Of a stretch of 64,000 nt of DNA, positions 2,626-54,020 are shown in pieces. A program made the translations under genes and the position numbers. The stretch's first letter is position 1. Each line of letters begins with the position of its first letter. Source of the stretch: a virus (Duplodnaviria > Caudoviricetes); the IMG/VR virus record IMGVR_UViG_3300037722_001090; one strand, 5' to 3'. The notes beneath the pieces were generated by a model. It was not told the origin of the DNA, ran no database searches, and was given only the letters and a program-made list of their open reading frames with translations.

Positions 2626-2635
2626 GTTATTAACA
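2626..2635 (+). promoter_or_regulatory. GTTATTAACA motif before homing endonuclease
   Basis: Recurs upstream of all eight endonuclease genes. Confidence 0.65.
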
Positions 2636-2665
2636 AGTATAAATACTATAAAAGGAGTATTATAC

Positions 2666-3346
2666 ATGTTTTATAATTATATATTTTTAGATCCTAGAAA
2701 GCCAGGTAAATATTTATATGAAAATTTTAGTCTTCTTTATGAACCATTTTATGTCGGAAAAGGCAAAAAAGATAGATATAAAACTCACTTACGCAAAATA
2801 AGGCAATTTCAAAAAGATTCAAATAAAGAAAAACAAAAAACTATTCTTGACATATGGTCCTCTAATTTAGAAGTATTAATTATCCTACTTAATTTTACAG
2901 ATAATGAAAAATTAGCATATAAAAACGAATCTAATATTATTAAAGATATAGGTTCATTATATAATGGAGGACCACTAACAAATTTAGTAGTTTCTTATCC
3001 ATTCAATGCTTCGCCAGAATTACGTAAAACATATGGAAGATCCGGAAACAAACATCATCTTTACAATAAAGGGCATTCAGAAGAAGCCAAAAAGAAAATA
3101 TCTGACAATCATGCTGATTTCTCAGGATCTAAAAATGGTAGAGCTAAAAAATGGAAACTAACTAGTCCAAATAAGATAGAACATATTATTTGTGGTGAAC
3201 TTATTGAGTTTTGTAGAGATAATAAGTTATCTATTTACAAGCTCAAAAAAAACATAGGCAATATAGTTACACAGCAAATAAGCTCCAGAAGAGTTAAGGT
3301 CAAGCCTATTGAACCAACCACAGGATGGAAACTAGATAGAATCTAG
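2666..3346 (+). CDS. freestanding homing endonuclease (GIY-YIG-like, NUMOD3-type repeat)
   Basis: YNYIFLDP...FYVGKG; HSEEAKKKIS repeat; antisense to neighbouring genes. Confidence 0.8.
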   Translation: MFYNYIFLDPRKPGKYLYENFSLLYEPFYVGKGKKDRYKTHLRKIRQFQKDSNKEKQKTILDIWSSNLEVLIILLNFTDNEKLAYKNESNIIKDIGSLYNGGPLTNLVVSYPFNASPELRKTYGRSGNKHHLYNKGHSEEAKKKISDNHADFSGSKNGRAKKWKLTSPNKIEHIICGELIEFCRDNKLSIYKLKKNIGNIVTQQISSRRVKVKPIEPTTGWKLDRI

Positions 3347-3349
3347 CCA

Positions 3350-3868
3350 TTAGAAGTGATTCCTATTCGTAGGTAGTGACTGAACATGCTTTACTCTGTC
3401 TTTAGCAGCCTGTAGAACTGAAGTTAAGTCATTATATTGCTTAACTCCATAGCGCTCACAAACAATATCAACATTGCCTTTACGCCAAAATCCTTCAGGA
3501 CAACAAACCATAAGTTTATCAGCATGAGAATTAGCATAAAGACCAAGTTCTAATAGGCTGATAGGAGATTTAGTATCTTTATCAAAATACAATATAATAA
3601 TATCTGCCTTTTCAAGAGCAGTTAATTCCCAAGTAACCTGAGAAACAAATTCATTATTACTTTTATCTTGTTTCCAGCTAGAATCCCAATTATCACGTCG
3701 TGGGTTAAATATATTTATATTCTCATCACAAAAAAACTGTACAGCAATTCCTTGCCAGTATATTGCCGTGCCCATTTCAATAGATCCAGCCAAGAAAATA
3801 CTAAAAGTTCCACGAGAGCCATACTTTGGATAATCAGGCAAAGGCATTGGTGCTTTAAATTCTTTCAT
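3350..3868 (-). CDS. nucleoside 2-deoxyribosyltransferase-like protein
   Basis: IFLAGSI, NPRR, WEL..LEKAD, SPISLLELG. Confidence 0.82.
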   Translation of the reverse strand: MKEFKAPMPLPDYPKYGSRGTFSIFLAGSIEMGTAIYWQGIAVQFFCDENINIFNPRRDNWDSSWKQDKSNNEFVSQVTWELTALEKADIIILYFDKDTKSPISLLELGLYANSHADKLMVCCPEGFWRKGNVDIVCERYGVKQYNDLTSVLQAAKDRVKHVQSLPTNRNHF

Positions 3869-4051
3869 AACTATACTTTCCTTACATTACGAGCAATGAA
3901 GACATTAGATGTTCCATCAGTCTCTAATACATGCCATCCTTGTGTATTTTTACAAAGATAGGTATAGGAACTCACCGTTGACCAATGAATCCCCATACCT
4001 ACAATCTCTGTACCCCAAATGACCCTATCGCCATATTTGAAGTCATCCATA

Positions 4052-4729
4052 TTAACGACTTAGTGCAGCTTTATATCCACGAACCTGCATTTCAGTAACA
4101 GTATAACCAGCAGCACGAAGCTCACTAGCTACCTGTGCGGACTTTTTACCTTGGCGAAGCTTATAATGGACAGCTTCTTTAAGGCTCATACTTCCAACTT
4201 TAATTGTAGCAGGTTTAACAGCAGGCTTAGTTGCAGCTTGAGTTACAGGAGCAGGCTTAAGAGATCCATTTGCCTTTACAATAGTAGCTTTTACTTTTTC
4301 AGAAAGCTCACGAGCTGCTTTTGCAATAACATCTTCAGTCTTTTCCGTTTTAGTTCCCCAGCAGTCATCATGATCGCTACATTCTGCACAATCAGGACCT
4401 TCTTCTAGTTCGTCACCGGACTCTTCATTTTCTACTTCTTTCGCTTCCGTAAGGAAGTATTCACGGAATACTGCACCATTAATATTTACATTACGGAAAG
4501 TAATATACATATCTTTACCGTCAATATCAGCAGTCATACCAGCAAACGTACAGATATTATATACATCTGACATTAGTTTACTAACGATTTCCTGAGTAGC
4601 ATAATACCCAGTTGTGCGAAGATAGTTTTTAACTTCAAGAGAAGTCACTTTCCCTGCATCAAGCATTGCCCAGTTCATGATAATTCCGACAACATCTGCA
4701 CTTACTACTTTTTTACCAATTGCGCTCAT
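4052..4729 (-). CDS. hypothetical protein
   Basis: 225-aa ORF with an acidic linker and possible C-terminal HTH. Confidence 0.7.
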   Translation of the reverse strand: MSAIGKKVVSADVVGIIMNWAMLDAGKVTSLEVKNYLRTTGYYATQEIVSKLMSDVYNICTFAGMTADIDGKDMYITFRNVNINGAVFREYFLTEAKEVENEESGDELEEGPDCAECSDHDDCWGTKTEKTEDVIAKAARELSEKVKATIVKANGSLKPAPVTQAATKPAVKPATIKVGSMSLKEAVHYKLRQGKKSAQVASELRAAGYTVTEMQVRGYKAALSR

Positions 4730-4734
4730 AGTTC

Positions 4735-5925
4735 TTATCCTTTTAATTGTATTAGAAATTTAATAGTACTTTGATCTTGATTATAGGTAATATATTCATT
4801 ATTGATTAAATCAACACCGCCTTTAGCAAATAGAGAATCATAATCTCCTTTTACTTTAAGCTGAGTTTCATTAAGGCTACCCATCCAAGATTCTCTTCTT
4901 TGGACATCTAGGCTATTGCCAAGATGAACGTCAAACAAAGCCATGATAGCTTCATCTGCACTGCCATTGGCCCAATATGAGCCTCTTCCAGATGTATATC
5001 CATATGATTTTCTTGCTTTATCGGCAAAATAAGTACCATATCCGAACATCTTACCAGAAATAACAGCATTTGTAGGTCTTAGAACAAGACCTGTTTCCAT
5101 AATAGATAGCCAGTTTTCATTACGGCTACCATGGAAAAACATTTCTGTTCTTTTATTTTTTGATTTAGCTACCCAATCATCAAATCGTTTTTGTGTTTTA
5201 TGATTTGTAATACTAAATGCATTATGGAACTTACCTTCAATATCTCCTAGTTTCCCACGAATAGCATTGCGATCAATATCACTAACATTTGACAAGCTTA
5301 GACCCATAGCATCAAGAATAGTTAATTTATCATCAACATTCTCACGCGTAAGTACCGCTTGTTTAACCTGAGAAGACATTGTATCGAGTAGTGCCTGCTC
5401 TCTTACTAGAAGAGGATTAAGTTTATCTGGAGAAAACTCTTTAAGTAGATAATCTTTTACATTACTCATTATGCGAGGAATAACCTGATAAAGATCAATA
5501 AGTAGCTTATTCGTCTCAGGTAAGTCATCAGCTTTCATTAAGGCATTCAGCAATGATTGAGCTTCCTCAACCTGTTTTTGCGTAACAGCACTTGCTGACA
5601 CATTATAAAATGCTGCAACCTCTTTACGTGCATATGCCTGTAGTCCAGCAATAAATCGACTAATAGCAATATCACTAATATCTTGAAAGTCAACTATTTC
5701 ACTAGTGTCTTCAATACATAGGTTAGTAATGTCTTTATATCCTTTAGCTATCTTCTCTCTATAAGTCTTTTCCCACCTACTATTAGGGTAAGTCTTTTTT
5801 TGACTACTAGCACCAACACGACCGAACTCAGCAAGGAAACTTCCATCTCCAGAGTCAGTCATATTATAATATTTATTATTATTTGCATCACCAGTAACCA
5901 TCATTAATTTAATCATTTTAGCCAT
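4735..5925 (-). CDS. WGR-domain poly(ADP-ribose) polymerase-like protein
   Basis: N-terminal NNNKYY..EFGRVG; catalytic FHGS, GKMFGYGTYFA, KSYGY, NEYITY; start set at MAKMIKLM. Confidence 0.88.
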   Translation of the reverse strand: MAKMIKLMMVTGDANNNKYYNMTDSGDGSFLAEFGRVGASSQKKTYPNSRWEKTYREKIAKGYKDITNLCIEDTSEIVDFQDISDIAISRFIAGLQAYARKEVAAFYNVSASAVTQKQVEEAQSLLNALMKADDLPETNKLLIDLYQVIPRIMSNVKDYLLKEFSPDKLNPLLVREQALLDTMSSQVKQAVLTRENVDDKLTILDAMGLSLSNVSDIDRNAIRGKLGDIEGKFHNAFSITNHKTQKRFDDWVAKSKNKRTEMFFHGSRNENWLSIMETGLVLRPTNAVISGKMFGYGTYFADKARKSYGYTSGRGSYWANGSADEAIMALFDVHLGNSLDVQRRESWMGSLNETQLKVKGDYDSLFAKGGVDLINNEYITYNQDQSTIKFLIQLKG

Positions 5926-5946
5926 ATATTTACCTTTAAAATAAGC

Positions 5947-6033
5947 TGGAGGAGAGTACTGGACTTGAACCAGTAGAGCTTTTAAGCCCCGACTGTTTAG
6001 CAAACAGCTTCCCTACCATTAGGCGAACTCTCC
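5947..6033 (-). tRNA. tRNA-Ser(GCT)
   Basis: Loop TTGCTAA, long variable arm, CCA. Confidence 0.92.
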
Positions 6034-53385: not shown

Positions 53386-53402
53386 GGTAATCTCCTAAAA
53401 TT

Positions 53403-53531
53403 GGGAGGGGGAGGTAGGAATCGAACCTACAATCTCAGCCTTTACATGTTCTCAACGCATGTGGGATACTACTAGGCACTCATGATTACCTATTTTCACC
53501 AGCTGGGCTTTACCAATTAAGCTACTCCCCC
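53403..53531 (-). ncRNA. tRNA-like RNA with a ~60-nt anticodon-loop insert
   Basis: GGGGGAG/CTCCCCC; canonical D and T arms; CAGCT/GGCTG stem enclosing two hairpins. Confidence 0.75.
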
Positions 53532-53541
53532 ATAAATGTAC

Positions 53542-53565
53542 GGGGTCCGAAGACCCCTTTTTTTT
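53542..53565 (+). terminator. hairpin with a T run on the plus strand
   Basis: GGGGTC-CGAA-GACCCC-TTTTTTTT. Confidence 0.6.
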
Positions 53566-53764
53566 AAAGCCCGAAATCAAACCTGTCATCGATATGCTCA
53601 ACTTCAGCAACCTGCTTATCCAAAGAGAGCCTCTCTTTAGTATCACGAACAGCTGCTTTGATATGATCCTCAGTTTCACCATCGATTCCAAAAGACGTTT
53701 GCATGCCAACCTCCTTGTAAAGTTGATCTTCCGGGAGTGGAAGCCGAACAAGAATAGCAAGAGC

Positions 53765-53902
53765 TTAACTTGTGAGAAATTTCAGAAGCGCACAGATAAG
53801 CAGATACGCAATATATCCTCCAAAACTCAAAAAGCAGAGAACAACGATCACAATGATCAGTTCAATGATAGTATAGCCTTTTTCGCTTTTAACAAGATCC
53901 AT
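53765..53902 (-). CDS. 45-aa prepilin-like membrane peptide
   Basis: MDLVKSEKG|YTIIELIIVIVVLCFLSFGGYIAYLLICALLKFLTS; GGAG RBS; below the ORF-track cutoff. Confidence 0.65.
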   Translation of the reverse strand: MDLVKSEKGYTIIELIIVIVVLCFLSFGGYIAYLLICALLKFLTS

Positions 53903-53913
53903 CTTTAATCTCC

Positions 53914-54006
53914 TTAAAGAAACATGATTGTTACATCTTCGCCACTAAGCTCTTCCTCGATTATTGATTTAACGATAGAAAAATCACCACCAGCAAGTCC
54001 GCAGTC
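53914..54006 (-). pseudogene. C-terminal remnant of a macrodomain gene
   Basis: DCGLAGGDFSIVKSIIEEELSGEDVTIMFL*, matching the IGCGLAGGDW motif. Confidence 0.8.
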
Positions 54007-54010
54007 ACTA

Positions 54011-54020
54011 GTTATTAACA
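54011..54020 (+). promoter_or_regulatory. GTTATTAACA motif
   Basis: At the macrodomain truncation, 22 nt upstream of the endonuclease. Confidence 0.65.

Follow-up and report, generated by a model that had tools for sequence, protein, structure and literature searches.

The intron endonucleases of phage T4 have middle or late promoters of their own, together with hairpins that sequester the ribosome binding site (RBS) (PMC2988022). At I-TevI, I-TevII, I-TevIII and segB of T4, as well as at mobE of Aeh1, RNA that reads through from upstream is translationally closed and RNA that starts at the late promoter is open (PMC2988022). Other described systems concern phage-encoded RNA polymerases. The non-virion RNA polymerase of AR9, a multisubunit enzyme with gp226 that needs uracil DNA, uses late promoters of the form AACA-(6N)-TA/G, and AR9 also has an intron-borne gene with its own promoter (PMC5312081, PMC5449584). 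The single-chain polymerase YonO transcribes the late genes of SPbeta from a promoter that is undefined and used once (PMC5467207). The phage polymerases of P23-45 serve pre-early and early/middle genes, each reading its own short motif, and the late genes of that phage use the host polymerase (PMC10770324). Here we analyse the 10-mer GTTAWTAACA in a 64,000-nt stretch of the Caudoviricetes record IMGVR_UViG_3300037722_001090 (hereafter the window), where it stands upstream of eight endonuclease genes, and in a diverged relative. Judged from its sequence and placement the 10-mer is probably a compact promoter of one transcription class of the phage lineage.

Occurrence and placement of the 10-mer in the window

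An exact scan of the window yielded nine matches to GTTAWTAACA, against 0.51 expected from dinucleotide-preserving shuffles, which held at most five copies (0/100 reached nine). Scanning with the 9-mer core gave the identical nine places. A preceding reading of the DNA without database searches (the sequence-only reading) had listed eight places before homing endonuclease genes and a single other copy at 38086, and all these coordinates were recovered. None of the nine copies lies inside a gene, and each has the orientation of the start codon that follows. As only about 3.7% of positions qualify by chance, at least eight of nine corresponds to p ~3e-11; in the window the motif is thus neither frequent nor randomly placed, as it would have to be under the condition that the sequence-only reading had named as counting against a promoter. 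The gaps between the end of the motif and the ATG are, in order from 2626 to 54011, 30, 35, 97, 22, 31, 28, 30, 49 and 22 nt, where the gap of 97 nt at 16860 spans a tRNA-like cloverleaf. The described arrangement, in the sense orientation of the endonuclease and about 20-35 nt before its start, therefore holds, with seven gaps of 22-35 nt and the 16860 copy preceding the tRNA-like element. The sites, the single endonuclease gene that lacks one and the intron that carries another are as follows.

2626..2635 (+): motif GTTATTAACA, 30 nt 5' of the ATG of a GIY-YIG/NUMOD3 endonuclease gene, 2666-3346 (+), which is antisense to its neighbours
10364..10373 (+): motif variant GTTAATAACA, 35 nt 5' of an HNH endonuclease gene, 10409-10987 (+)
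16860..16869 (-): motif, 7 nt before the tRNA-like cloverleaf 16756-16852 (-), which is followed by a PD-(D/E)XK_5 endonuclease gene, 16322-16753 (-)
21538..21547 (+): motif in a divergent intergenic gap, 22 nt before an HNH endonuclease gene, 21570-21998 (+)
25783..25792 (-): motif within the NAMPT group I intron, 31 nt before an HNH/EndoVII-like endonuclease gene, 25200-25751 (-)
33562..33571 (+): motif, 28 nt before an HNH endonuclease gene, 33600-34085 (+), and 15 nt from tRNA-Ile (33473-33546, -)
37220..37229 (-): motif within the tRNA array, 30 nt before an HNH endonuclease gene, 36638-37189 (-)
38086..38095 (-): motif without endonuclease, 49 nt before a conserved open reading frame (ORF) of 62 aa, 37848-38036 (-), after which come tRNA-Pro and the array of tRNAs (37525 down to 29928)
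54011..54020 (+): motif, 22 nt before a GIY-YIG/NUMOD3 endonuclease gene, 54043-54816 (+), which is antisense to its neighbours
32272..32796 (-): ninth endonuclease gene, HNH (phrog_16726, 3e-28), without motif; it follows tRNA-His directly and lies in the tRNA array in the same orientation, downstream of 38086 and 37220
25095..25924 (-): group I intron that splits NAMPT (exons 25913-26341 and 24052-25014) and carries the endonuclease ORF 25200-25751

Endonuclease identities were determined by Pfam and PHROGs searches of the window ORFs, which agree with the GIY-YIG, HNH and PD-(D/E)XK families called before. The eight motif-headed ORFs comprise two GIY-YIG/NUMOD3, four HNH (in two clades), one HNH/EndoVII-like and one PD-(D/E)XK_5 endonuclease; the HNH genes 21570-21998, 33600-34085 and 36638-37189 match phrog_2255/35854, and the HNH/EndoVII-like assignment of 25200-25751 comes from PHROGs only. 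Eight of the nine endonuclease genes of the window carry the motif directly upstream. The statement that it precedes all eight of them was right for those eight and had overlooked the ninth, the HNH gene 32272-32796, upstream of which the motif was looked for and none was found. Among twenty other window ORFs scanned there is no further nuclease.

The two GIY-YIG genes, and likewise four of the HNH genes, are distant paralogues (27-49% identity), and the window nucleases fall into about five families. The mobile genes that the sequence-only reading called unrelated are thus not all unrelated to each other. Apart from the 10-mer the leaders of paralogous nucleases are unalike. Recent duplication as the source of the shared 10-mer was rejected on these grounds: with paralogues only 27-49% identical and leaders otherwise unalike, it is selection, not recent copying, that keeps the 10-mer. 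Furthermore, five endonuclease genes of the window, as well as one ORF of the relative described below, are antisense to all their neighbours and share no upstream sequence other than the 10-mer. Genes inserted antisense to their neighbours need a promoter of their own.

The element in a diverged relative

No close relative of the window phage, which is uncultured and of ~200 kb, was found among GenBank phages by DNA or by PhoH protein. A search for an exact 46-mer did not locate the source contig in IMG/VR or among metagenome contigs, and the identical PhoH protein was seen on two short JGI contigs only. The single relative found is the IMG/VR contig IMGVR_UViG_3300005264_000005 (hereafter G001; 103.7 kb), the proteins of which are 22-76% identical and of which 57-103 kb is syntenic with 1-61.5 kb of the window. 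G001 contains the identical 10-mer seven times, against none for a reversed control pattern, and all exact copies lie 23-53 nt before a start codon with a ribosome site. Four further copies with one mismatch occur in the same setting, which gives 11 sites in G001 and, with the window, 20 sites. Seven of the 11 precede endonuclease or endonuclease-like ORFs, none of which is orthologous in position to a window endonuclease. Conversely, 7/8 endonuclease or endonuclease-like ORFs of G001 are motif-headed with zero or one mismatch; in both genomes the motif is 22-46 nt upstream, with the 16860 case at 97 nt. The contents of G001 that matter here are the following.

Motif-headed: an HNH gene in the RNR intron region
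Motif-headed: an EndoVII-like gene
Motif-headed: two LAGLIDADG genes
Motif-headed: two HNH_repeat/DUF2726 genes
Motif-headed: an 83-aa ORF without Pfam or PHROGs match, the N-terminus of which is NUMOD-like by eye only
Motif-headed, no nuclease: a 147-aa membrane/coiled-coil protein just after RNR
Motif-headed, no nuclease: a 97-aa ORF before a dnaE segment
Motif-headed, no nuclease: a 94-aa ORF in the tRNA array
Motif-headed, no nuclease: a 57-aa ORF, the orthologue of window 37848-38036
689-1654: HNH+NUMOD3 endonuclease gene without motif, packed into an operon on the plus strand where the late arm ends

The site before the 57-aa ORF, G001:82612, is orthologous to 38086 of the window. Both genomes have at this place the motif, the small conserved ORF, tRNA-Pro and the tRNA array, and AGTTATTAACAAA (13 nt) is the longest identical run in the orthologous intergenic region. 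The element is therefore not exclusive to endonucleases, since it also heads the tRNA array in both genomes. The endonuclease genes without motif, one in the window and one in G001, are both co-oriented inside other units, which would be served by another promoter.

In the unrelated phages that were scanned the pattern is absent. Ten whole records of unrelated phages with a Ro60-like gene hold 0-2 motif copies each, NadR-like loci of unrelated phages have only scattered copies inside genes (~1 per 77 kb), and in the contigs of DUF7338 homologues, again of unrelated phages, the motif was not found. Because unrelated phages that share these three genes either lack the motif or have scattered intragenic copies, the motif is specific to the lineage. 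A scan of IMG/VR for the motif followed by a gap and GGAG returned chance matches, with none related among the matches listed; a second scan with the pattern of the orthologous site found no genome beyond G001. A literature search for the 10-mer gave only unrelated primers and tags.

The DUF7338 gene merits a separate remark. It is 59-65% identical in the otherwise unrelated phages L279, L280 and L282, and in L279 and L282 it adjoins HNH-like ORFs near terminase and portal genes; no nuclease was called beside it in L280. This suggests that the DUF7338 gene is a mobile late gene.

A proposed compact promoter and its alternatives

Sequence information was profiled over the 20 sites (nine of the window, 11 of G001). 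It is limited to position -1, the 10-mer, a purine at +12, position +14, and position -15, which is A or T only. Position -1 is A in 15/20 sites and never T, +14 is A in 15 sites, +10 is A in all 20, and the centre of the core is T in 19. The core GTTA-W-TAAC is a perfect 4+1+4 inverted repeat of 9 bp, so the near palindrome noted by the sequence-only reading is confirmed, and the asymmetric flanks together with the centre make the site directional: all 20 sites point at a gene. There is no -35 element over the 20 sites, as no information is found upstream of -1 except the A or T at -15, and sigma-70-type matches in the window are no more frequent than expected by chance. A sigma-70 promoter with TTAACA as its -35 box was considered and rejected, since the few such matches would put the start at the ATG. 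The distance between motif and start codon varies from 22 to 53 nt, leaving the 97 nt at 16860 apart. In the shortest leaders the ribosome site follows about 10 nt after the motif, hence any start site must lie within or just after it.

We propose that A-GTTATTAACA-nRyA would be a compact class promoter, read by phage-specified machinery and not by a sigma-70-type -35/-10 mechanism, with transcription probably starting a few bases after the 10-mer. Whatever their orientation, and also within introns, endonuclease genes that reside in the early/middle (minus-strand) arm would each have their own copy and could in this way be expressed as a separate, probably late, class that is independent of the genes they interrupt. 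Those that are co-oriented within a unit served by another promoter would do without. In some units the 10-mer may double as the 5' arm of a hairpin over the Shine-Dalgarno (SD) to AUG spacer and the start codon, in which case read-through transcripts would be translationally silent and motif-started transcripts open, which is the logic of T4 I-TevI. Promoter activity, start site, timing and reading enzyme are what we infer. A phage-specific promoter, the option that the sequence-only reading preferred, is the best supported one: the element is directional, compact, identical in a diverged relative at non-orthologous endonucleases, and heads antisense inserts.

Several observations weigh against a promoter. 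The 20 sites include 15 that precede endonuclease or endonuclease-like ORFs, with which a nuclease-specific control element would also be compatible, and 7 kb of late-arm genes in G001 contain no exact copy. At 38086 and G001:7717 a terminator-like hairpin with T-run directly follows the motif. The strong stem over the start codon described below is formed at 3/20 sites only. Finally, a 4+1+4 dyad is unusual for a site bound by a polymerase only and suggests a dimeric binding protein.

The last point is the basis of the alternative that survives best, according to which the dyad is an operator or activator site bound by a dimeric DNA-binding protein of the phage, which would repress or activate a weak promoter close by. 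Besides the perfect inverted repeat, the closeness to the RBS would suit occlusion, and I-TevI of T4 is autorepressed through an operator overlapping its late promoter (PMC2988022). The symmetry is, however, broken consistently by the bases at -1, +10 and the centre, and the orientation follows the gene at 20/20 sites. Moreover, no second conserved element that could serve as the promoter is present upstream or downstream, and at 33562 there is no room for one. An operator, which the sequence-only reading had kept as an option, fits the asymmetric flanks poorly and we regard it as unlikely.

A further alternative places the function in the RNA. The self-complementary core can pair with a GTTAATA-type spacer between ribosome site and AUG. 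At 25783, before the intron ORF, the partner of the motif is the spacer GTTAATAAUG between SD and AUG (-11.8 kcal/mol); at 33562 the motif pairs with the start region (-13.8 kcal/mol, z -5.6); and at G001:76459 the stem between motif and start has -11.7 kcal/mol. The z-scores of the three stems range from -3.3 to -5.6, and no stem is left in an RNA that begins 5 nt downstream of the motif. One of the three stem-bearing genes is an antisense insert. A complementary spacer occurs in 5/20 motif-headed genes as compared to 4/168 others (p 8e-4). By analogy with T4 I-TevI this is suggestive of an additional layer of RBS-sequestering hairpins at a minority of the sites. The RNA-level alternative goes further and holds that the transcribed motif acts as such, either by forming the 5' side of a hairpin that controls translation or by serving a phage RNA-binding protein as a site of processing or binding. 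The significant stems and the enriched spacer speak for it, as does the abundance of genes for RNA handling in the window (Ro60-like, RNA ligase and CCA-adding enzyme). Against this, 17 sites lack a strong stem, the distance to the start is variable, and the 16860 site precedes a tRNA-like element and not an RBS. In addition, the antisense inserts would continue to depend on a promoter further upstream, and no conserved one is present. We therefore hold a role at the RNA level alone to be improbable, more so than an operator.

With respect to the hairpins at the other end of a unit, we observed an overlap between the motif and the 5' arm of a hairpin with T-run (-22 kcal/mol) at G001 7717-7680 (L008), directly after the RNR stop codon. 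The site G001:7717 could be a combined terminator and restart.

The remaining alternative is a cassette-boundary, homing or recombination signal, in which the motif would mark the end of an insert or a shared cleavage or recombination site; the 10364 motif does abut the break point of a disrupted tRNA gene and all copies near endonuclease ORFs are 5' of them, but a replacement tRNA at 33562 lies within the insert and outside the motif and the 25783 motif lies inside an intron, so that the position relative to the insert ends is not constant, endonucleases of at least four unrelated folds cannot share one target, which makes a shared homing site impossible, and the motif stands before conserved, non-mobile units of both genomes as well, all of which renders this signal, including the cassette end of the sequence-only reading, very improbable.

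The intron and tRNA structures to which these arguments refer were examined as well. Halves of a group I intron (Rfam RF00028) at 25095-25273 and 25651-25924 flank the ORF 25200-25751 (E 2e-10 and 2e-5, below the gathering score), which bears out that one endonuclease is an intron ORF, here inside the split NAMPT gene. In the relative NAMPT also consists of two ORFs, with a gap of ~250 nt between them that has no ORF (G001 72072-72320). The sequence 16756-16852 (-) can be folded into a cloverleaf of four arms that includes a TTCGAGT loop (-36 kcal/mol, z -2.5) and is not called as a tRNA by ARAGORN or Rfam; of the passenger tRNA proposed at 16860 the fold is thus confirmed and the identity as a tRNA is not. 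In this cloverleaf the anticodon loop is UGA (Ser-type), the variable arm is long, the D loop has 4 nt and the acceptor stem is extended; upstream of the 16860 motif the sequence is similar to the 5' half of an older tRNA. At ~10310-10360 (-) lies an orphan tRNA 3' half with T arm GGTTCGAATCC and an ACCA end, which stops exactly at the 10364 motif. The HNH cassette 10409-10987 appears to have been inserted into a tRNA gene.

Two other signals were noticed in the window. The motif TGCTATTCT is over-represented between 22656 and 62051, with 13 copies against ~1 expected, all on the minus strand. Its copies are both intergenic and inside genes and never stand before an endonuclease gene; the relative has eight, seven of them on the minus strand. 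Resembling an extended -10, TGCTATTCT may mark promoter-like sites of a different class. The second is a non-coding stretch of ~750 nt, 59700-60450, at a sign change of the GC skew. It contains five TTTCCGT repeats (59817-60050) as well as two degenerate copies of GTTAWTAACA (59935 and 60038), and TTTCCGT also occurs 16 nt upstream of the 38086 motif. This stretch may be an origin or control region.

The polymerase of the lineage and comparison with described systems

If the element is a promoter, the lineage offers a candidate for its reader. The ENA scaffold L283 extends G001 by 9.2 kb and encodes a protein of 1360 aa (L283:2895-6977). Its small family has an invariant DxDGD, and its best sequence matches in the PDB, which are weak, are the beta' subunits of AR9 and phiKZ. 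The AlphaFold model (pLDDT 76, ~90 over residues 255-1190) matches QDE-1, RDR2, P23-45 gp64 and P74-26 gp62 (Foldseek E 1e-10 to 1e-7; to 6e-5 when the crAss-like virion polymerase is included). According to the predicted fold the lineage encodes a single-chain two-barrel RNA polymerase, as seen in the relative; the search for a phage RNA polymerase suggested by the sequence-only reading has thus given an enzyme, identified by DxDGD and Foldseek in the scaffold of the relative. The motif was not found in ~22 kb of early-region DNA around the polymerase gene of two relatives (the longer ENA scaffold and a Logan contig), which fits an enzyme that is made early and a motif that is used afterwards. 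The protein has an N-terminal YpsA/SLOG-like domain (PDB 3imk, E 2e-12; Pfam cpYpsA). Its homologue P0042 also has a cpYpsA Pfam match, and none is recorded for P0043 and P0044.

That GTTATTAACA is a promoter read directly by this YonO/gp64-class non-virion polymerase is possible, and we put it forward tentatively. A host polymerase with a phage factor is, at a similar level, an equally tentative reader. Should direct reading prove true, the element would be a multi-copy and sharply defined consensus for a class of enzymes of which promoter recognition is almost unknown; the endonuclease genes would be natural promoter traps and the dyad core could reflect an unusual mode of recognition. As a class promoter the element would be a clean candidate for an uncultured phage lineage with a single-chain cell-type RNA polymerase. 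Mobile endonuclease genes of many folds would converge on one expression signal of their host phage, more fully than in T4, which suggests that selfish genes are under strong selection for expression in a single temporal class, separate from the genes that they interrupt. The signal may help to annotate free-standing homing genes and to date when they were inserted.

Among the described systems T4 is the closest. In both cases unrelated mobile endonuclease genes situated in early/middle units have their own copy of what is in T4 a phage class promoter and here a putative one, in one case here inside a group I intron; some units have, here as a prediction at a minority of sites, a hairpin over the translation start with its 5' arm at or before the presumed start site, and other endonuclease genes are promoterless and ride on upstream units. 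The sequences differ: TATTAACA matches the T4 late consensus TATAAATA at 6/8 positions and is GT-extended here, and the invariant core GTTATTAACA as such reaches 6/8 at best. No genes of gp55/gp33 type, as in T4, were seen in the DNA that could be read. Coverage differs too, with 8/9 endonuclease genes in the window and 7/8 endonuclease or endonuclease-like ORFs in the relative as compared to roughly half of the 15 of T4, and many of the inserts here are antisense.

The late promoters of AR9 are similar in that a short conserved element ending in AACA lies just before the start, followed by TA, in that there is no -35 element, in that the phage encodes a cell-type RNA polymerase, and in that an intron-borne gene has a promoter of its own, here a putative one. 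In contrast to AR9, TA follows after about 2-3 nt instead of 6 nt, ten bases are invariant here, and the polymerase is predicted to be a single chain. The AACA-nn-TA of the motif thus resembles the consensus of the AR9 non-virion polymerase only loosely and does not match it. In phiKZ the late promoter is TATG. The likeness to YonO and to gp64 and gp96 of P23-45 lies in the 1360-aa protein of the relative, which is modelled with the same fold. The terminator/promoter cassettes of PeSL type in T4-like phages are similar to G001:7717, where the motif overlaps the 5' arm of a terminator after RNR and could both end and start units; unlike these cassettes, such an arrangement concerns one or two sites only, and the motif is far shorter and not an early promoter.

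Taken together, the arrangement is of a kind known from T4. What is new is the motif itself, the fact that in two genomes it covers nearly all endonucleases, which come from at least seven families, and its occurrence in a lineage with a two-barrel single-chain polymerase.

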